A DNA stretch of 43,427 bases, taken from NCBI GenBank assembly GCA_964638985.1, contig CAZXCD010000005.1, positions 1 to 43,427 on the forward strand, read 5' to 3'. The stretch is from an uncultured Candidatus Saccharibacteria bacterium (GTDB lineage: Bacteria; Patescibacteriota; Minisyncoccia; Phycocordibacterales; UBA9973). Position 1 is the stretch's first letter. Each line of letters begins with the position of its first letter. Shown in pieces: positions 6,784 through 42,227 of the stretch. The notes under the pieces were generated by a model. It was not told where the DNA came from and searched no databases. It saw only the letters and a program-made list of their open reading frames with translations. A program made the translations under genes and the position numbers.

Positions 6784-8820
6784 ATGCAACATCTGGCAGG
6801 GCTAAATAAAGAACAAAGAGAGGCGGCGCTTCATATGGAAGGTCCGCTTCTTATTGTCGCCGGAGCAGGAGCGGGGAAAACCAAGACTATTACGCACAGA
6901 ATAGTAAATTTGATAAAAAATGGAGTCGCTCCCGAAAAAATTCTGGCCGTTACTTTCACCAACAAGGCTGCGAAGGAAATGCGGGAAAGAATTATCGCGG
7001 AAATCCAAAAAAATGCCAAGGGGCAGGACAAAATCCCTTTTGTTTCCACTTTTCACTCGCTGGGAGTCTACATAATAAAGGAAAATGCTCGATTACTGGG
7101 ATTGACTAAATATTTCACTATTTTAGATGAGGGCGATGCGACAACTTTAATAAAAAATATATTGAAAGAGCTAGGCATAGACCCAAAACAATACGACCCC
7201 AAGAAAATAAAAAATATAATCTCGCGAGAGAAGGAAAAATTCGTGCATTTGTCCGACTATGCGGAAGGAGCCAGTGACACTTTGGGGAAAATAGTGGCGC
7301 AAGTGTGGAATCTATACGAAAAGCAAAAAATGAAAGAAAACTCCCTGGATTTTGATGATTTGCTCTTAAAAGCGACAAAATTGTTGAAAGAAAATGCGGA
7401 AATAAGGAAAATTTATCAGGAAAAATGGGACTACATACATATAGATGAGTATCAAGACACCAACGAAGTGCAATATTTGATGTCTAAACTGCTTTCGGAA
7501 AACAATAACAACATTTGTGTCGTGGGGGACCCAGATCAGTGTATATATTCATGGCGTCAAGCAGACATGAGAAATATCTTAAACTTCGAAAAAGACTACA
7601 GAGATGCAAAAATAATTTTATTGGAGCAGAATTACCGCTCCACGAAGAACATCCTGGAAGCAGCCAATGAAATAATAAAGAAAAATAAGTACCGTCCGGA
7701 CAAAAATTTATTTACCGACAACGTGGTGGGAGAAAAAATAGGACTCTATGAAGCGCTGGATGAAACCGACGAAGCGGAATTCGTAGCGACAAAAATTCTG
7801 GAAATTATGGATGGTCCACACCCTCCCCAAACCCCTCCCTCCGCGGGGGGGGAGGAATCCTCTCCCCCTGCGAAGGGGGAGTGCCACGACTTGAGTCGAG
7901 GCGAGGGGGTGAATCCCTCCGAAATTGCTCTGTTATACCGCGCGAACTTTCAATCCCGAGCACTGGAAGAAGCGATGCTTCGTTACAACATCCCATATCA
8001 AGTTCTGGGTGTGAAATTTTTTAAAAGAAAAGAAATCAAAGATACCCTTGCGTACCTCCGCGCCGCCTTGAACCCCGACAGCCTTTCGGATATAAAAAGA
8101 ATAATAAATTTCCCTGTACGAGGAATAGGTAAAGTCACCTTGGTGAAAATCTTTGCCAACGAGATTGAGAGTCTGCCGATAAAAGTCCGAATAAAAATTA
8201 ATAACTTTTATCAAATTCTAGAAGAAATAAAGGAAAAAATTAAAACTGCCAAGGCGAGTGAGGTAATAAAGTTCGTGGTAAAGAAGTCCGGGATTGAGCA
8301 AGAACTTCTAAACGGGGGAGAAGAGGATATAGAGAGATTGGAGAACATTAAAGAACTCGCCACTCTAGCGCTCAAATACGACAATCTGGAAAATGGTACA
8401 GGGATAGAAAAGCTTTTAGAAGATGGTGCCCTAGCTTCAGACCAAGATAGCTTAATGATAAATCAAGATAAGTCTGAGCGAGGACTACCCTCGCTCAAAA
8501 ACGGAGTGAAATTGATGACAGTCCACGCCTCAAAAGGTCTTGAATTCAAATACGTTTTTGTCACTGGACTGGAAGACGGACTCTTCCCACACGAAAGACA
8601 AAATGAGAGACAGGCAGGCGAAGACCGAGAAGAAGAGCGCCGACTTTTCTATGTAGCACTCACTCGCGCCAAAGAAAAATTATTTTTATCCTTTGCGAAT
8701 TTCCGCACTATTTTCGGCTCCCGCCAAATAAATGCTCCATCAGAATTCATCTCTGACATCCCAGCAGATTTATTAGAAAAGGAAGGCGAAACTAGCGGAA
8801 TAAAGACGATTTATCTATAA
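6784..8820 (+). CDS. pcrA: ATP-dependent DNA helicase PcrA/UvrD (SF1)
   Basis: Walker A AGAGAGKTKT, DEYQDTN, VVGDPDQCIYSWRQA, NYRST, VHASKGLEF, RRLFYVALTRAK. Confidence 0.9.
   Translation: MQHLAGLNKEQREAALHMEGPLLIVAGAGAGKTKTITHRIVNLIKNGVAPEKILAVTFTNKAAKEMRERIIAEIQKNAKGQDKIPFVSTFHSLGVYIIKENARLLGLTKYFTILDEGDATTLIKNILKELGIDPKQYDPKKIKNIISREKEKFVHLSDYAEGASDTLGKIVAQVWNLYEKQKMKENSLDFDDLLLKATKLLKENAEIRKIYQEKWDYIHIDEYQDTNEVQYLMSKLLSENNNNICVVGDPDQCIYSWRQADMRNILNFEKDYRDAKIILLEQNYRSTKNILEAANEIIKKNKYRPDKNLFTDNVVGEKIGLYEALDETDEAEFVATKILEIMDGPHPPQTPPSAGGEESSPPAKGECHDLSRGEGVNPSEIALLYRANFQSRALEEAMLRYNIPYQVLGVKFFKRKEIKDTLAYLRAALNPDSLSDIKRIINFPVRGIGKVTLVKIFANEIESLPIKVRIKINNFYQILEEIKEKIKTAKASEVIKFVVKKSGIEQELLNGGEEDIERLENIKELATLALKYDNLENGTGIEKLLEDGALASDQDSLMINQDKSERGLPSLKNGVKLMTVHASKGLEFKYVFVTGLEDGLFPHERQNERQAGEDREEERRLFYVALTRAKEKLFLSFANFRTIFGSRQINAPSEFISDIPADLLEKEGETSGIKTIYL
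7817..7911 (+). repeat. GC-rich multi-hairpin element, family A, in-frame in pcrA
   Basis: Ends CACACCCTCCCC...GAGGGGGTG. Internal hairpins include CTCCCCC-TGCGAA-GGGGGAG and CGAC-TTGA-GTCG. Encodes PHPPQTPPSAGGEESSPPAKGECHDLSRGEGV. Confidence 0.8.
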
Positions 8821-10377: not shown

Positions 10378-11222
10378 AAGCAAAAAAATCATTGGGGCAA
10401 AATTTTTTAAAGTCGGAGATTGCGCTCAAGAAGATTGTTGAAGCGGGAGAAATAAAAAAGAGCGACGTGATTTTGGAAATCGGCCCAGGGAAAGGAGCGC
10501 TCACAGAAAAACTGTTAGCTTCTGGCTGTCAGCTTGTAGCTGTGGAGAAAGATCGAGATTTATATGAATTATTGAAAGATAAATTTCAGAAAGAAATTGC
10601 GGAAGGAAAATTAGTTTTGTTAAACGAAGACATACTTAAATTTCAAATTTCCAATTTCAAATTTCCAAAATATAAAATCATCGCCAACATTCCTTACAAC
10701 ATCACCGGCGCGATTTTAAAAAAATTTTTAACAGAAAAAAATCAGCCGGAAAGAATGATTTTGATGGTCCAGCGCGAAGTGGCGGGGAGAATAATCGCCC
10801 GCGATGGGAAGGAAAGCATTCTTTCAATGTCAGTCAAGGCTTACGGGGAACCAAAAATGATAATGAAGGTAAATAAAAGATATTTCTCTCCAGCGCCCAA
10901 AGTTGATTCCGCGATAATTGAAATAAAAAATATTTCGAGAAAAAATTTTCCTCCCCTCCTTGTGGAGGAGGGGGCAGGGGGTGGTGATTCAAAGAGATTA
11001 CCACCTCGCCCTTCGGGCACTCCTCCTCAAAAAAGAGGAGAGGGGACATTCGAGGAAAAATTTTGGGAAATAGTAAAAACCGGCTTTGCGCACAAACGTA
11101 AAAAACTTTCTTCAAACCTAAAAGGATTAATTTCTCCCCAAAAACTGTCTTCGGTAAACCTAGGTGACAAAAGGGCGGAAGATTTGGCTCTTTCAGACTG
11201 GATAAACCTAGCTAAAAACTAG
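10374..11222 (+). CDS. rsmA: 16S rRNA (adenine1518/1519-N6)-dimethyltransferase RsmA/KsgA
   Basis: LGQNFL, EIGPGKGALT, ANIPYNIT, and C-terminal FAHKRKKL. The ATGA start overlaps the upstream stop. Confidence 0.9.
   Translation: MKAKKSLGQNFLKSEIALKKIVEAGEIKKSDVILEIGPGKGALTEKLLASGCQLVAVEKDRDLYELLKDKFQKEIAEGKLVLLNEDILKFQISNFKFPKYKIIANIPYNITGAILKKFLTEKNQPERMILMVQREVAGRIIARDGKESILSMSVKAYGEPKMIMKVNKRYFSPAPKVDSAIIEIKNISRKNFPPLLVEEGAGGGDSKRLPPRPSGTPPQKRGEGTFEEKFWEIVKTGFAHKRKKLSSNLKGLISPQKLSSVNLGDKRAEDLALSDWINLAKN
10950..11046 (+). repeat. GC-rich multi-hairpin element, family B, in-frame in rsmA
   Basis: CCTCC-TTGT-GGAGG, GGTGG..CCACC and CCTCCTC-A6-GAGGAG hairpins. Encodes PLLVEEGAGGGDSKRLPPRPSGTPPQKRGEG. 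About 80% identical by eye to the copy at 24122-24216. Confidence 0.8.
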
Positions 11223-35506: not shown

Positions 35507-36526
35507 TTACAAAAGCTTTTCTTGACCTTTTTTCATATCAAAACCCAGGTGCTCGTACGCTTTTTGTGTAGCGACACGTCCGCGCGGGGAGCGTTCAAGT
35601 AGTCCGAGCTGGATTAAATATGGCTCCACTACTTCTTCCACTGTGGCTTCTTCTTCCGACATCGCCGCAGCTATCGTCTTCAAGCCTACCGGCCCGCCGT
35701 TGAATTTATCTATCAAAATTTCCAAGAATTTTCTGTCAGAAGGGTTCAGCCCGATGTCATCTATTGCGAGCATATTCAGAGCTTCTTTTACTATTTTTTG
35801 ATTCAAAAGTTTTTTTTCGTCTTTTTTATACACCTGAGCAAAGTCTCTACAGCGTTTCAAAAAATAATTTGCGGTACGCGGGGTGAACCGGCTTCTCTTG
35901 GCGATTTCTTTCAATGCTTCTTCCTCTAACTCTATAGATAGTAATTTACTTGATCGTTCAATAATTTTTGAGATTTCTTCGTTGGAGTAGAATTCTAAGC
36001 GGAAGACTCCACCAGAGAAACGGGAACGAAGCGGGGAAGAGACGAGGGCTACACGAGTGGTTGCTGCAATCAAAGTAAAGGGTGGCAAATCAAGCTGGAT
36101 AGTGCGCGCCGAAGGTCCTTTGCCGATGATGATATCCAATACCCCAGACTCCATAGCAGGATAAAGTATTTCTTCAACCATCTTATTGAGTCTGTGAATT
36201 TCGTCTATAAAAAGAATGTCGCCGGGCGCTAGGTTGGTAAGGATAGAAGCCAAGTCGCCGACTTTCTCTATCGCCGGACCGGAAGTTACCTTCATCTGTC
36301 TGCTGGTTTCTTTCGCAATCAAGTGCGCGAGGGTTGTTTTCCCTAATCCTGGAGGGCCATAAAATAAAATGTGTTCAGGGATATGTCCGCGTTCTTCGGC
36401 TGCTCTTAACAAGATTTTCACATTGTCTTTTATGTGTTTTTGGCCAATATACTCTTCCCAGCTACTAGGGCGCAGGGTTTGGTCTAAAACAGATTCTTCT
36501 ATTTTTTCGTTTTGTTCGCTTGACAT
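35507..36526 (-). CDS. ruvB: Holliday junction branch migration ATPase RuvB
   Basis: Walker A GPPGLGKTTLA, Walker B ILFIDEIHRL, and C-terminal winged helix (GLLERSPRGR). Confidence 0.95.
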   Translation of the reverse strand: MSSEQNEKIEESVLDQTLRPSSWEEYIGQKHIKDNVKILLRAAEERGHIPEHILFYGPPGLGKTTLAHLIAKETSRQMKVTSGPAIEKVGDLASILTNLAPGDILFIDEIHRLNKMVEEILYPAMESGVLDIIIGKGPSARTIQLDLPPFTLIAATTRVALVSSPLRSRFSGGVFRLEFYSNEEISKIIERSSKLLSIELEEEALKEIAKRSRFTPRTANYFLKRCRDFAQVYKKDEKKLLNQKIVKEALNMLAIDDIGLNPSDRKFLEILIDKFNGGPVGLKTIAAAMSEEEATVEEVVEPYLIQLGLLERSPRGRVATQKAYEHLGFDMKKGQEKLL

Positions 36527-36667
36527 TGTATTTATATTATGCTATACTGTACTTACGGTGCATTTATCAACAGGGTATACACATACCTATCAACATTATA
36601 GCACTGGCGCTCTTTTACATATAGTATAATTCTCTCAGAGTTTTTTTTGGGGGGTTTAAATAGGAAG

Positions 36668-36817
36668 GCATTAATCTCTAAGCAATCAGCCACAGGTTAT
36701 ACGAATTTGCATAGGACGTTCTGGTACTTTTATTAGTTCACTGGTACTATCCTATAATACTTTGTTACTTTGGGGGCTTAGCCCCGAAAGGATTGTTTAG
36801 AGATTAATGCTTTTTTT
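36668..36817 (+). other. unclassified 143-nt element bounded by 20-bp inverted repeats, followed by T7 (candidate small RNA or MITE)
   Basis: GCATTAATCTCTAAGCAATC (36668-36687) pairs with GATTGTTTAGAGATTAATGC (36791-36810): 19 Watson-Crick pairs plus 1 G-U. Internal hairpins ATAGGA/TCCTAT and GGGGC-TTA-GCCCC. The T7 tract occurs only on the plus strand. Confidence 0.35.
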
Positions 36818-36853
36818 ATTTGATTTTTAATTTTTCACTCTTGCCTTTGATAT

Positions 36854-36986
36854 TTCACCCCTCAGGCATTTCTATGCCAGCTCCCCTTCGCAGGGGAGCA
36901 AAAATCCAATACTAATATGAATCTTGATTACAGAGAATTTTTCCTCCCCTGCGAAGGGGAGGTGCCCGTTAGGGCGGAGGGGTGAA
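36854..36986 (+). repeat. GC-rich element, family A long form (two halves split by a 44-nt AT-rich spacer)
   Basis: TTCACCCCT...AGGGGTGAA termini. Hairpins GGCAT-N4-ATGCC, CTCCCC-TTCGCA-GGGGAG, CCTCCCC-TGCGAA-GGGGAGG. The right half encodes the C-terminal 18 aa of the DUF559 ORF. Confidence 0.75.
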
Positions 36987-37326
36987 TACAATCTTTTATT
37001 TTTTGCAGTACATTTTTTATATTTTTATCTATTTCACTATTCCAAAGTCTCAATACCTTTATTCCCAAGGTTTCTATATAGCTGTCTCTTTCTTTGTCGT
37101 ATTCTTTTTCATCTTTATGTTGAGCGCCGTCCAATTCAATTATTAAATTGTGTTCTTTGCAATAAAAATCAACAACGTACGGGCCTATCCCATGTTGTCT
37201 CCTAAATTTTACGCCCAATTTTTTATTTCTTAAAAAATGCCAAAGTTTAAGTTCTTGTGGAGTTGAAAATTTTCTCAATTCTTTTCTGCGAGGTAGAAAT
37301 TTAGATTTGTTAAATACTTCATACAT
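36928..37326 (-). CDS. DUF559 (Vsr-like / PD-(D/E)xK fold) endonuclease-domain protein
   Basis: STPQELKLWHFLRN...FRRQHGIGPYVVDFYC....LIIELDG.QH.....YD..RD.YIE..G..VLR is the classic DUF559 pattern. The longer ORF-track start at 37371 runs into a repeat terminus, so ATG 37326 is preferred. Confidence 0.8.
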   Translation of the reverse strand: MYEVFNKSKFLPRRKELRKFSTPQELKLWHFLRNKKLGVKFRRQHGIGPYVVDFYCKEHNLIIELDGAQHKDEKEYDKERDSYIETLGIKVLRLWNSEIDKNIKNVLQKIKDCIHPSALTGTSPSQGRKNSL

Positions 37327-37339
37327 ATATTTTAGTATA

Positions 37340-37478
37340 TCACCCCTCTGTTTTTTGATTACAAAAAACACCTCCCCTTCGCAGGGGAGGAAAAACCGCT
37401 AATCATATGTTTAGGGAGTATTTGCCTTTCCTGCGAAGGAAAGGTGGCTCTGTGTAATCACAGAGACGGAAAGGTGAA
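37340..37478 (+). repeat. GC-rich element, family A long form (degenerate)
   Basis: TCACCCCTC...AAGGTGAA termini. Hairpins TGTTTTTT-N6-AAAAAACA, CCTCCCC-TTCGCA-GGGGAGG, CCTTTCC-TGCGAA-GGAAAGG, CTCTGTG-TAAT-CACAGAG. Confidence 0.65.
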
Positions 37479-37503
37479 AGAATTTAGTATTTTTTATTCC
37501 TCA

Positions 37504-37531
37504 TTCACCCTTCGCAGGGGGAATTAGGTGG
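37504..37531 (+). repeat. solo hairpin TTCACCC-TTCGCA-GGGGGAA (family A fragment) downstream of pilB
   Basis: Read directly. About 20 nt beyond the pilB stop, so it could double as a terminator. Confidence 0.55.
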
Positions 37532-37551
37532 AAAAGAATAAGTTAGTAAAC

Positions 37552-39249
37552 TTATTCTTCGCTCAAGTCCACCACGCTTTGCACTTCTACGAAGGAAGTA
37601 ACTCCATTTAATATTTTTATCAATCCGTCCTGCCTCATAGAGAGGACGCCTTGAGTTCTTGCCACTTTTTTGATTTCACGTTCACTAGGATTTTCTGGAA
37701 TTATTTTTTCTATTTCTTCGTCTGTTTTTATCGCTTCAAATAACCCGATGCGTCCTTTAAAGCCGGTTTTGTTGCATTTGTCACAGCCGACGGCTTCAAA
37801 AGTTTTAAAAGGTCCATCAGGGTTCAAATTATAATTTGAAATTTGTTTTCCTTCCGCTGTCATTCCGTCAATGATTAATTTCATTGTTTTTATTTCTTCT
37901 GGAGTCAGCTCTCTTTCTTTTTTACAAGAAGCGCAAAGTTTGCGTACCAAGCGTTGAGCCAGGGAGATAGACAGAGCGGATACCAGAATTTTGGGGTTGA
38001 CTCCGAGGTCAATCAAGCGGGGGATGACTCCGGCCGCGTTGTTGGTATGCAGAGTGGAGAAGACCATGTGTCCGGTCAAAGCCGATTGCACGGCGATAGA
38101 GGCTGTATCTCCGTCGCGGATTTCCCCGACCATTATTACGTCCGGGTCTTGGCGGAGCGCGGAACGCAGTCCTTCAGGGAAAGTATAACCTCTCTCCATG
38201 TTTACTTGAGTCTGGGTTATGCCCGTCAAGTGATACTCCACCGGGTCTTCAATGGTGATTATTTTTATTTCTGGTGAATATATTCTTCGCAAGAAAGAAT
38301 AGAGAGTGGTGGTTTTTCCGGAGCCGGTAGGTCCGGTGACCAGGATTAAGCCGTTCGGTTTCGCTATTTCTTCTTTTATTATTTCAAAGAGTCGGTTTTC
38401 AATTCCCAGCTCCTCCATCTCCACTTGCAAGGATTTCGGGTCCAAGATACGCATCACAATTGATTCGCCGTAGGAGCCGGGGATAAGGGAACAGCGAATA
38501 CTGATTTCTTCCTCTCCTTCTATAATATTAAAGCGTCCGTCTTGCGCTACCGTGGAAGTCAATTTCATTCCCGACAAGAGCTTGATGCGGGAATTAAGCA
38601 ATTTATATACATCTGTTCCAAAAAAATTCACATCTTGCAATACACCGTCCAAACGCAGTCGCAACCTACCCCTGTCCTTTTCCGGTTCTATGTGGATGTC
38701 GGAAGCTTTGATGGCGATAGCGCCGGCTAAAATAATTTCAAGCAGACGAGAAATTTTATGGATTTTGTTTCCCTCCAAGGCTTCTTTTACCAACTTCTCT
38801 ATGTCTTCCATTTTTTCTATTTGTTTAGCCGTATCTCGGAGAACTTCTCCAGAGATGTCCAAGCCCCCGATTCTTGAACTTTCCGCCATGGAAATTTCCT
38901 TGTACCTGTCCCAAACTTTATTCAAGCTGGCGGCGGAGGCCATATAGAAAACAGGGACAAGACTTTTCCTTTCCATATCCTCTTTTAGTCTGGCAAAAAG
39001 GCTGTCCGTGGGAGCGCGCACCGCTATGAAAATATTTTTTCCAAAAAGCTTAAAAGGTGCCACATTCATTTCTCTAGCGTCCTGTTCGGAAATTGCTCGC
39101 AGGGCTTCGTTGTCTACGCCCAGACGATATAAATTGATATAAGGAATGCCATACTTGGATTCCGCCAAAGTAGCCACCAGTTGCTCTTCCTCCTGTTTGT
39201 GTAATTCATCCAGTTGCTTATTTTGTTTTTCTTCATCAAAGGAAGCCAT
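37552..39249 (-). CDS. pilB: GspE/PilB-family type IV pilus (T2SS-like) assembly ATPase
   Basis: Walker A GPTGSGKTTT, the Asp and His boxes, and the tetracysteine motif CASC...CDKC. Confidence 0.9.
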   Translation of the reverse strand: MASFDEEKQNKQLDELHKQEEEQLVATLAESKYGIPYINLYRLGVDNEALRAISEQDAREMNVAPFKLFGKNIFIAVRAPTDSLFARLKEDMERKSLVPVFYMASAASLNKVWDRYKEISMAESSRIGGLDISGEVLRDTAKQIEKMEDIEKLVKEALEGNKIHKISRLLEIILAGAIAIKASDIHIEPEKDRGRLRLRLDGVLQDVNFFGTDVYKLLNSRIKLLSGMKLTSTVAQDGRFNIIEGEEEISIRCSLIPGSYGESIVMRILDPKSLQVEMEELGIENRLFEIIKEEIAKPNGLILVTGPTGSGKTTTLYSFLRRIYSPEIKIITIEDPVEYHLTGITQTQVNMERGYTFPEGLRSALRQDPDVIMVGEIRDGDTASIAVQSALTGHMVFSTLHTNNAAGVIPRLIDLGVNPKILVSALSISLAQRLVRKLCASCKKERELTPEEIKTMKLIIDGMTAEGKQISNYNLNPDGPFKTFEAVGCDKCNKTGFKGRIGLFEAIKTDEEIEKIIPENPSEREIKKVARTQGVLSMRQDGLIKILNGVTSFVEVQSVVDLSEE

Positions 39250-39734: not shown

Positions 39735-42227
39735 ATGTCTAAAGATAATAAAAGAGTAGTCTTATTGGATGCTCACGCCATAATACATCGCGCTTATCAT
39801 GCGTTGCCGGAGTTTTTGTCTTCAAAGGGTGAGCCGACGGGGGCGCTCTATGGTCTTTCTAGTATGTTGATGAAGATAGTTACTGATCTAAAACCGGACT
39901 ATATCGTCGCTTGTTATGATTTACCGCAAAAGACCTTCAGACACGAAGCTTATGACGCGTATAAAGCCGGACGAGCAAAGGTTGACGAGGCTCTAATTGT
40001 CCAGTTGCAGAATTCTCGGCAAATTTTTGAAGCTTTTAACATTCCCATTTACGATGCGCCGGGCTTTGAAGCGGATGATGTTTTGGGGACGATAGTAAGA
40101 CAATTTTACCCCCACCCAGCCTCCCCCTATGTAGGGGGAGGGGCTGAAAGCGGAGGGGGGATAGATATTATCATCGCTTCCGGAGATATGGATACGATGC
40201 AGTTGGTGGATGACAAAAAGGTCCAAGTTTATACCTTAAAAAAAGGAATTAACGATACTATTCTATACGACGAAGATGCTGTAGTGAAGCGTTTTCATTT
40301 CAAGCCGAAGCTTTTGCCGGACTATAAAGGTTTGCGCGGAGATCCTTCAGACAACATTATCGGCATCAAGGGTATAGGTGAAAAAACAGCAGAAACCTTG
40401 ATTATAAATTTTGGCACCATAGAAGAAATATACAAACAATTACGAATGGACAATTACGAATTACGATTTAAAGAGGCGGGTATTAGCCCTAGAATGATTG
40501 AGTTGCTAAAAAATAACGAAGAAGAAGCTTTGTTTTCAAAGACGTTGGCAACTATCCGCACGGATGCGCCGATAAATTTTTCTTTGCCGTCAAAAACTTT
40601 TTGGGAAAATGCGGATTTGAAGAAAATTGAAGAAGTTTTCGCGACGTTTGAATTTAGGAGCTTGCTCGGACGACTAAAAAACTTCTTTGAGAACAATGGG
40701 AAGGCAAATCTAGCAGAATTTTCTCAGGTCCTCGGTTCTCCGGGGCCCCAAACCCCGGCCAGACCATTCAAAAATTCTCTAGATTTACCGTCCCCAGAGA
40801 AAATCCAAGAAGCCAGTATTGCTCTATGGGTTATCAATTCCGAGATGTCCAATCCGAAACTGGAAGACATTTTGCTTTTTGCTCACACTGAATCTTTTGA
40901 GACGGCGTATAATTTTATTTTTACAAAACTGAAAGAGAAAAATCCCCGCCAGGGCGGGGCAAGCTTAGAAAAAGTATATGAGGAGATAGAAAAGCCGATA
41001 ATCCCCGTCGTAAAAGAAATGGAAAATCACGGTATTTTGGTAGATAAAAAATATTTTGAAAAATTATCGGAAGAGTATCATAAAGAGTTGGATATTTTAA
41101 CAAAAAAGATATACAGCCAGGCCGGCACCGAATTCAATATCAATTCCCCGAAGCAATTGGGTGAAATACTTTTTGGAAAATTAGGGATGAAGTCACCAGG
41201 AAAAAATAAAGCAAAAAAGAATGCCAGTGGCGCGTTTTCTACCAAGATTTCCGTTCTAGAAGAACTGGAAGGAGAGAATGAAATAATAAAAGAAATAATG
41301 GCTTATCGGGAACTGCAGAAACTGCTATCAACGTACATTGATGTTATCCCTAAAATGGCGGGAGAAGATGGTCGTCTTCACGCCAAATTTATCCAAAACG
41401 GTTCCACTACTGGAAGGTTCTCTTCCCAAGACCCGAATTTACAGAACTTGCCGATAAAAACGGAATTGGGTAAGAAAATTCGCAACGGCTTTGTCGCGCA
41501 AAAGGGACACAAGCTCACCGCTTTTGATTACAGCCAGATTGAACTGCGGGCGGCGGCGATGCTTTCAGGAGACAAAAAAATGACCCAAGTTTTCCGAGAG
41601 AGGAAAGATATTCACGCTGGGGTGGCCTCGTTTGTTTTTGGAGTGCCGATAGAGAAAGTGGATAGTGAAATGCGTCGCCAGGCGAAAGTGATAAACTTCG
41701 GAATTATTTATGGTATGGGGGTTTCCGCTTTGCGGAAAAATCTCGGAGGCACTCGTGAGGAAGCGCAGAAATTTTATGATAATTATTTTACTCAATTTTC
41801 CGGTGTGCGAGATTATCTGGAGGGGGTGAAAGTTTTCGCTGGGGAACATTCTTATACGGAAACCTTGTTTGGTCGTAGGCGATATTTCCCGAATATAAAT
41901 TCCAGAATTCCTTTTTTAAAAAATATGGCTGAACGTACCGCTACAAATGCCCCCATCCAAGGAACCGCCGCTGACATTATCAAGCTTGCCATCAGATACG
42001 CGGAAGAGGATTTGGAAAAGGCGGGGTTGTTGGGCAAGGTTCATCTGGTACTTCAAATTCACGACGAGTTGGTTTATGAGGTAGAAGAAAAAGTTTTGCC
42101 AGAAGCCGATAAAATAATAAAAGAAGCCATGGAAGGAGTGCTTTTGCGGTCATATTTGCGTTATAAAACGGATGTTCCACTCCTCGTACATTCTGGGTCA
42201 GGAGACAATTTAGGGGAAGTAAAATAA
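39735..42227 (+). CDS. polA: DNA polymerase I (5'-nuclease + family A polymerase domains)
   Basis: N-terminal 5'-3' exonuclease motifs (LLDAHAIIHRAYHA, GFEADDVLGT, SGDMDTMQL, GIKGIGEKTA). Pol A motifs (DYSQIELR, RRQAKVINFGIIYG, QIHDELV). Confidence 0.95.
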   Translation: MSKDNKRVVLLDAHAIIHRAYHALPEFLSSKGEPTGALYGLSSMLMKIVTDLKPDYIVACYDLPQKTFRHEAYDAYKAGRAKVDEALIVQLQNSRQIFEAFNIPIYDAPGFEADDVLGTIVRQFYPHPASPYVGGGAESGGGIDIIIASGDMDTMQLVDDKKVQVYTLKKGINDTILYDEDAVVKRFHFKPKLLPDYKGLRGDPSDNIIGIKGIGEKTAETLIINFGTIEEIYKQLRMDNYELRFKEAGISPRMIELLKNNEEEALFSKTLATIRTDAPINFSLPSKTFWENADLKKIEEVFATFEFRSLLGRLKNFFENNGKANLAEFSQVLGSPGPQTPARPFKNSLDLPSPEKIQEASIALWVINSEMSNPKLEDILLFAHTESFETAYNFIFTKLKEKNPRQGGASLEKVYEEIEKPIIPVVKEMENHGILVDKKYFEKLSEEYHKELDILTKKIYSQAGTEFNINSPKQLGEILFGKLGMKSPGKNKAKKNASGAFSTKISVLEELEGENEIIKEIMAYRELQKLLSTYIDVIPKMAGEDGRLHAKFIQNGSTTGRFSSQDPNLQNLPIKTELGKKIRNGFVAQKGHKLTAFDYSQIELRAAAMLSGDKKMTQVFRERKDIHAGVASFVFGVPIEKVDSEMRRQAKVINFGIIYGMGVSALRKNLGGTREEAQKFYDNYFTQFSGVRDYLEGVKVFAGEHSYTETLFGRRRYFPNINSRIPFLKNMAERTATNAPIQGTAADIIKLAIRYAEEDLEKAGLLGKVHLVLQIHDELVYEVEEKVLPEADKIIKEAMEGVLLRSYLRYKTDVPLLVHSGSGDNLGEVK
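40109..40160 (+). repeat. GC-rich hairpin element in-frame in the polA 5'-nuclease domain
   Basis: CCCCC...GGGGG outer arms and CAGCCTCCCCC-TATGTA-GGGGGAGG(GG)CTG hairpin. Encodes PHPASPYVGGGAESGGG. Confidence 0.75.
40947..40963 (+). repeat. 17-nt GC hairpin CGCCAGGGCGGGGCAAG (family D), in-frame in polA
   Basis: Exact match (opposite strand) to yebC 35036-35052. CCCCGC-CAGG-GCGGGG hairpin. Encodes NPRQGGA. Confidence 0.7.

Follow-up and report, generated by a model that had tools for sequence, protein, structure and literature searches.

DUF559 nuclease genes framed by family-specific triplex-type DNA repeats in a 666-kb CPR genome: a possible selfish cassette

Free-standing genes of the DUF559 (Vsr-like) nuclease family were found to be framed by folded DNA repeats, and the tie between gene and repeats, which the first-pass annotation had suspected at a single locus, turned out to be real and general, comprising all five free-standing genes of the source genome (G000, 666 kb) as well as genes of relatives and of other phyla. 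Each gene is paired with its own repeat family, the boundaries of the resulting cassettes are defined, and the copy located between pilB and ruvB has persisted vertically, with local gain and loss of half-units. We tentatively propose, at a probability of roughly 0.45, that the DUF559 gene belongs together with the family A elements in one kind of selfish cassette. The link between enzyme and repeats is an association, from which we infer that the nuclease acts on the repeats. The locus lies within the window, i.e., the whole stretch of 43,427 nt that was analyzed, and is composed of the following features:

36823 to 37551, no strand assigned: whole extra block, missing from at least 17 genomes of the genus according to synteny and the alignment of filled and empty sites
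36854 to 36986, no strand assigned: E1, long-form family A doublet downstream of the DUF559 gene, kept in the orthologous loci L095, L097, and L101
36854 to 36863, 36865 to 36878, and 36880 to 36899: left part of E1, with terminus TTCACCCCTC, small hairpin, and hairpin GCTCCCC-TTCGCA-GGGGAGC, followed by a spacer
36943 to 36962, 36964 to 36975, and 36976 to 36986: right part of E1, with hairpin CCTCCCC-TGCGAA-GGGGAGG, small hairpin, and mirror third strand GGAGGGG plus TGAA
36928 to 37326, minus strand: DUF559 (Vsr-like PD-(D/E)xK) nuclease gene, 132 aa, Pfam E = 8e-36
37340 to 37478, no strand assigned: E2, long-form doublet upstream of the DUF559 gene
37504 to 37523, minus strand: 'solo hairpin', remnant of a single unit with a deletion between purine arm and third strand
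37534 to 37559, minus strand: 11-bp perfect inverted repeat over the pilB stop codon, kept in L095 and L099

The two long-form elements and the solo hairpin were thus present as first described, the DUF559 gene being the only gene of the region, and the outward-facing termini AGGGGTGAA (36978-36986, E1) and TCACCCCTC (37340-37348, E2) were also recovered. E1 and E2 are imperfect palindromes of 133-139 nt, each featuring a pair of inverted hairpins whose loops read TTCGCA / TGCGAA. E1 is delimited by perfect terminal inverted repeats of 10 nt (TTCACCCCTC / GAGGGGTGAA), and the end of E2 at 37478 (GGAAAGGTGAA) was set by symmetry with E1. The first half of E2 has CCTCCCC/GGGGAGG arms and the terminus TCACCCCTC, and its second half CCTTTCC/GGAAAGG arms and the terminus GGAAAGGTGAA, so that the three strands co-vary. 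This composite is kept in L097 and L099, and L095 has a CCCCTCC version at that position. Folded as single-stranded DNA, E1 reached -45.2 kcal/mol (z = -10.8) and E2 a z value of -7.7. The core CCTTCGCAGG occurs nine times in the window, compared to 0.04 expected occurrences, and 22 times in the 666-kb genome. An intact counterpart of the solo hairpin (TTCCCCCTGCGAAGGGGGAA-hairpin-AAGGGGG) stands at the corresponding place in L095 and L099. The inverted repeat at 37534-37559 is likely the pilB terminator stem and would mark the host boundary of the block. A known RNA family was dropped as the identity of E1 and E2, because the Rfam searches (gathering threshold and E ≤ 1) returned only chance matches to miRNA hairpins.

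The DUF559 gene obtained a profile score of 122.7 bits for PF04480 (curated cut-off 20.6) and matched the NCBIfam YcjD model NF007294 with E = 1e-26, which is under the equivalog cut-off of that model. Its start was placed at the ATG at 37326 (MYEVFNKS...), which is common to all orthologues, and not at the GTG at 37371 inside E2; the sequence TATACT is located between the E2 terminus and this ATG. The stop codon occupies 36928-36930 and, as had been noticed before, lies inside E1 together with the final 18 codons. The folded domain extends over approximately residues 10-115 (Pfam match, residues 14-113), and the tail from residue 114 onwards (IHPSALTGTSPSQGRKNSL) is coded by E1, residues 119-132 being predicted to be disordered. 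In agreement with this, the structure model (pLDDT 81) falls below 50 for residues 119-132. The best fold matches obtained with Foldseek were the DUF559 structure 3HRL, followed by the catalytic domain of I-Bth0305I (3R3P; chain 3R3P_B with E = 1.8e-4, probability 1.00, TM 0.77 on target) and then PvuRts1I and Vsr (1VSR); the sequence search of solved structures returned 3HRL alone. The modelled protein has a nuclease fold of the kind present in a known homing family. The catalytic-type residues D53, E64, D66, and H70 are unchanged in 26 homologues, and dN/dS values of 0.09-0.22 against four orthologues show that the gene is under purifying selection. In G000 and in the four orthologous loci, the gene neighbors are pilB and ruvB, and no methylase gene adjoins.

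Alignment of the 22 family A hairpins revealed a constant half-unit, consisting of a pyrimidine arm, a TGCGAA loop, a purine arm, a variable mini-hairpin, and a G-rich terminus, the latter being the mirror of the purine arm (GGGGGAG to GAGGGGG, GGGGAGG to GGAGGGG, and GGAAAGG to GGAAAGG). This segment order is that of the class II intrastrand-triplex motifs (BoxC / PIT / TMECO), and the G000 units may likewise form a triplex. A generic detector built for the layout (pyrimidine arm, loop, purine arm, mirror G-rich third strand) identified 69 loci in the 666 kb of G000, compared to 4-7 in dinucleotide shuffles, with the third strand being an exact mirror 64 times and a direct copy 23 times. At an orthologous position, all three strands co-vary (CCTTTCC/GGAAAGG/GGAAAGG versus CCCCTCC/GGGGAGG/GGAGGGG). 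Family A is one among about five families of BoxC/PIT-type units in G000; its second loop measures 8-23 nt and contains a mini-hairpin, versus 3-5 nt in the other families. In total, 63 loci are gene-less, of which 52 were assignable to one of the five families, and most gene-less family A copies have just the loop and the C-run in common with E1 and E2. Since hardly any exact family A hairpins occur in 40 relatives, co-occurrence with the gene was tested with the generic pattern.

Gene-less units were also encountered within coding regions. In a naive ORF set, which makes the count approximate, 40 of the 63 fall within ORFs of 100 aa or more, whose reading frame continues through them; examples in the window are located in polA (40108-40161), uvrD (7816-7910), and ksgA (10948-11059). 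The polA insert (FYPHPASPYVGGGAESGGG) is absent from the orthologues in L097 and L101, a comparison which shows that gene-less units do insert.

The adjacency of further DUF559 copies to the repeats had been set beforehand as a test of the association, and the other four genes of G000, as well as most copies elsewhere, are framed likewise. G000 contains six DUF559 matches, namely the five free-standing genes and one domain of an 1180-aa protein. Units frame all five free-standing genes on both sides, the two flanks of each gene belonging to one family that is specific for that gene and has gene-less copies elsewhere in the genome. With a strict detector, a unit locus was found at both ends of three of the five DUF559 genes versus 2 of 753 other ORFs (Fisher p = 1.4e-6), i.e., three of the 5 ORFs bracketed at both ends among 758 are DUF559 genes. 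The five gene copies are only ~50% identical to one another, and near-identical gene-bearing copies at different sites were not seen, so there is no sign of recent gene mobility. The 1180-aa protein (C6, 17619-21161) combines a P-loop (GPPGTGKS) with a C-terminal DUF559 domain; owing to its other architecture and the lack of triplex-type units nearby, it was rejected as a member of the cassettes. A similar open frame of 1177 aa with a weak DUF559 match is present in G022 (L035).

Among 41 relatives, the DUF559 copy number ranges from 0 to 6, and 20 of 27 loci have units at a distance of no more than 200 nt from the gene, which corresponds to about 20 times the density in the rest of these loci. 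Most commonly, the order is [C-terminus, hairpin] - gene - [hairpin, G-terminus], the downstream unit beginning 0-10 nt past the DUF559 domain in most cases. A scan of GTDB genomes added 31 loci from Nomurabacteria, Saccharibacteria, and Uhrbacteria (CPR), Bacteroidota, Gammaproteobacteria (Aeromonadaceae), Nitrospirales, Rhodothermales, and others. In 28 of these loci a unit lies close to the gene, the unit density there being 30 times that of the rest of the loci. One homologue, which is from Saccharibacteria and 63% identical, is accompanied by TGCGAA-loop units arranged in the canonical way. The expectation that repeat-rich genomes also carry DUF559 genes held in part. The generic repeat count correlates with the DUF559 count over 41 genomes (rho 0.60), and outside the genus both genomes that have the gene contain repeats (2 of 2), compared to 0 of 14 genomes lacking it, but the correlation within the genus was not significant. 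Moreover, G018 (99% complete) and G024 (86% complete) harbor 10 and 13 repeats, respectively, and no DUF559 gene, so the repeats can persist without it. Protein clade and flank sequence of non-syntenic pairs gave a weak signal (Mantel rho 0.11, p about 0.04). In L028 (G039, C4) and L032 (G010, C43), a unit-framed DUF559 domain resides inside open frames of 556 and 1001 aa, which possibly represent in-frame cassettes within host genes.

The filled and empty sites of two junctions define the cassette boundaries. The pilB-ruvB synteny is kept across the genus, and in at least 17 genomes the gap measures ~330 nt, holds only a conserved RNA-like element, and has the pilB stop abutting the terminator of this element; G000 carries ~730 extra nt there (window 36823-37551). 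The sequence of the metG|tatD junction is TAAaATG in 12 genomes. Two types of DUF559 cassette occupy it in 7 of about 27 genomes (L067-L094), the intergenic junction measuring 1-5 nt. The form TACCCC(C/T)ACCC...gene...GGGGGTA was found in G000, G011, G001, and G020, where its ends coincide exactly with the repeat termini, and the second type fills the site in G022 and G016. The insert of G000 reads TACCCCCACCC...gene...GGGTGGGGGTA. Both sites were either empty or occupied by a whole cassette: a gene-less element was not encountered at metG|tatD in any genome compared, and at neither junction did a gene-less doublet of one genome correspond to a gene-bearing doublet of another. A clear target-site duplication was not found at metG|tatD or in polA. 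In G000, G011, G001, and G020 (L067, L075, L076, and L078), the G-terminus at metG|tatD is followed by TATAAT, which is a possible outward -10 box for the downstream gene. In other members of the genus, the metG|tatD gap is filled by a palindrome of the Y1/RAYT type (tacacaggggaaccctgtgta).

Upstream of ruvB, a candidate structured ncRNA of ~155 nt (36663-36817, plus strand, within 36520-36817) is kept across the genus. It has a strong promoter (TTGACA-17-TG-TATACT, 36520-36548), a T-run terminator, and a 26-bp closing stem, 16 pairs show compensatory changes, and Rfam gave no match to it, even at E ≤ 1.

The closest homologues of the DUF559 protein (74-85% identity) are all located between pilB and ruvB on independent metagenome contigs and are accompanied by the same repeat family, yielding an orthologous series with the following differences:

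L099: G-half alone downstream of the gene
L101: gene placed between direct repeats of identical C-halves
L095: 82-aa ORF within the E2 spacer
L097: further inserted sequence after E1
G000: 'solo hairpin' as the deleted form of the unit that is intact in L095 and L099

L095 has a CCCCTCC / CCTCCCC version in place of the odd half of E2 (CCTTTCC arms and terminus), which means that the three strands change together. The 82-aa ORF (L095, 2150-2420) is of higher G+C content and indicates that doublet spacers can hold other cargo. The locus had alternatively been regarded as a tolerated landing pad within a pile-up of elements. The landing pad was partly right: elsewhere in the genus (L040, L056, L057, L060, L063, and L066) the pilB-ruvB gap is occupied by a RelE/ParE-like pair, a LOG-family gene, or a GtrA-like gene, and such unrelated cargo indicates that the site is also permissive. 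The pile-up was not, since gene and repeats are orthologous in relatives and were rearranged in place; the locus is therefore an old cassette with local turnover of half-units, and not a recent pile-up of independent insertions.

Other candidate mobilizing enzymes were also considered. The reported lack of a transposase was borne out, as Pfam transposase families found no match in a scan of 35 further window ORFs (≥90 aa), from which pilB and the DUF559 ORF were excluded. On other contigs of G000 (C1, C2, C3, C4, C8, C9, C11, C14, and C17), 12 Y1/RAYT-like genes coding for ~220-245 aa were identified, each flanked by its own simple palindrome. Their closest distance to any triplex-type unit is at least 540 nt. 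As they have their own palindromes and none adjoins a unit, they were rejected as mobilizers of the units and appear to form a second, separate repeat-enzyme system.

At the core of the proposed cassette would be a small nuclease gene of the Vsr-like and homing-endonuclease-like kind, with inverted copies of a folded DNA repeat on either side. The long-form elements would be its gene-less counterparts, comparable to REPINs or MITEs, and single units with both termini may be collapsed forms. The nuclease would recognize the folded repeat of its own family and nick or cut at or near it, whereupon host repair (recombination, gene conversion, or template switching) could copy, homogenize, or relocate the repeats, and from time to time the gene as well. 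The enzyme would accordingly act by cut-and-repair like a homing endonuclease, and not by strand transfer like a transposase. Since a hydrolytic Vsr-like nuclease cannot transpose DNA alone, structure-directed nicking or cutting combined with host repair would be the likeliest mechanism. The same property counts against the cut-and-repair reading, because such a nuclease by itself leaves the arrival of repeats at new sites unexplained. This reading is further weakened by the age of the gene copies, the weak Mantel signal, the lack of a gene-less intermediate at an orthologous site, the occurrence of repeats without the gene in G018 and G024, the non-significant correlation within the genus, the limited resemblance of most gene-less family A copies to E1 and E2, and the lack of a clear target-site duplication. 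A wider generalization, which we regard as doubtful, is that DUF559 proteins are structure-specific nucleases for intrastrand hairpin/triplex DNA. Together with the repeats, they would constitute a widespread class of cut-and-repair mobile elements, supply the missing partner of BoxC/PIT, diversify as cognate pairs, and seed in-frame inserts in essential genes, from CPR to Proteobacteria.

Several features of the data would also be expected if the repeats spread otherwise, for instance by slippage or template switching at folded DNA, by host recombination, or by some other enzyme, and the DUF559 gene were captured or flanked cargo that does not act on them. Gene-less loci outnumber gene-bearing ones by ~12 to 1, two genomes maintain repeats without the gene, both the doublet spacers (82-aa ORF in E2 of L095) and the pilB-ruvB gap accept different cargo, and recent gene-bearing duplicates are absent. 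A mere passenger, however, would hardly account for three of the five both-end-bracketed ORFs in G000 being DUF559 genes, for a bracket that is tight, family-specific, and recurring across phyla, for the restriction of repeats outside the genus to the two gene-bearing genomes, or for the purifying selection on the protein, so this explanation is considered unlikely. The remaining possibility that the association is due to chance or to an assembly artefact, with unrelated repeats lying beside an ordinary gene, is favored only by the fact that exact family A copies are few (22 hairpins). It was refuted by the shuffle controls and the Fisher test, and also by orthologous loci recovered from independent metagenome assemblies and by the 28 of 31 loci from other phyla.

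Purifying selection would equally be expected of a horizontally transferred host repair or defence nuclease, i.e., a Vsr-type mismatch nuclease like VsrA of Caulobacter, with the repeats serving as expression signals (terminator, -10 box, or ribosome-site mimic), insulators, or recombination ends. A DUF559 protein has been linked to cytosine methylation and DNA damage (PMC12907096), the E2 hairpin followed by a T-run resembles a terminator upstream of the DUF559 gene, and G-termini are followed by TATAAT or TATACT just ahead of the next ATG. Such a host function is nevertheless improbable in view of the presence of five paralogues, all paired with different repeat families, in only 666 kb of genome, of pilB and ruvB as neighbors without an adjoining methylase gene, and of 63 gene-less loci, 40 of them inside ORFs, where the units cannot be expression signals of DUF559.

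BoxC/PIT "triplex" repeats have been on record for some thirty years, and DUF559 is a very common domain. The literature searched assigned neither an origin nor a mechanism or protein partner to the BoxC/PIT repeats, and among publications on DUF559, BoxC/PIT/ycjD, and Vsr-like homing nucleases no paper was found that describes the pairing of gene and repeat. The nearest published items are the BoxC/TMECO paper (Holder et al. 2015, PMC4666352), the Caulobacter VsrA study (PMC12907096), and a table row in which DUF559 is enriched among predicted inversion targets. If DUF559 and the triplex repeats belong together, the origin of the repeats and the function of the domain both become testable by one purified protein and a few oligonucleotides. 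From the reduced genome of a CPR bacterium, the window contributes five cognate pairs of gene and repeat, exactly defined filled and empty sites, a series of orthologues in which the repeats are rearranged around the gene, and in-frame gene-less insertions in essential genes.

Among known systems, TMECO is a class II intrastrand-triplex motif with 9-nt stems and a second loop of 3 nt that is described as always intergenic, its consensus being CCCTCNCCC-N3-6-GGGNGAGGG-N3-GGGNGAGGG; limits for the second loop are 3 nt for TMECO, ≤6 for ITxF, and ≤10 according to Hoyne et al. 2000 (PMC4666352). The G000 units share with BoxC/PIT/TMECO the sequence of C-rich arm, short loop, G-rich arm, and G/T-rich mirror segment, the 3' segment mirroring the purine arm (G for G, A or T for A). 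They likewise occur singly or as inverted pairs, vary in copy number among close relatives, and are tied to genome rearrangement. Unlike TMECO, their stems measure 6-7 nt, family A (CTCCCCC-TGCGAA-GGGGGAG...GAGGGGG) does not match the consensus and, with a second loop of 8-23 nt including a mini-hairpin, departs from the short second loop of the class, and many copies lie inside ORFs.

In the REP/REPIN-RAYT system, which Nunvar in 2010 and Bertels and Rainey in 2011 are said to have described, an enzyme gene is similarly flanked by its own short palindromic repeat family, with gene-less inverted doublets genome-wide and one family per paralogue. In contrast, the flanked gene of G000 codes for a PD-(D/E)xK Vsr-like hydrolase and not for an HUH Y1 transposase, its repeat bears a mirror third strand, and the Y1/RAYT-like genes of G000 bear other, simple palindromes. 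Like the Rickettsia palindromic elements, reportedly the work of Ogata et al. in 2000, the G000 repeats are inserted in frame in essential genes and translated (polA, uvrD, and ksgA), but sequence and architecture are unrelated, and the G000 repeats are associated with a nuclease gene. E1 and E2 resemble MITEs in having terminal inverted repeats, a length below 200 nt, a long hairpin fold, and a gene-bearing relative, and differ from them in lacking a transposase among the scanned window ORFs and a clear target-site duplication. Unlike Vsr very-short-patch repair, the gene is not linked to a cytosine-5 methylase gene in G000 and the four orthologous loci. Finally, the DUF559 gene is free-standing between repeats, without an intron or intein and without detectable sequence similarity to I-Bth0305I (PMC3239194), whereas it has a catalytic fold similar to that of this homing endonuclease and shows presence/absence polymorphism at conserved sites with precise ends.
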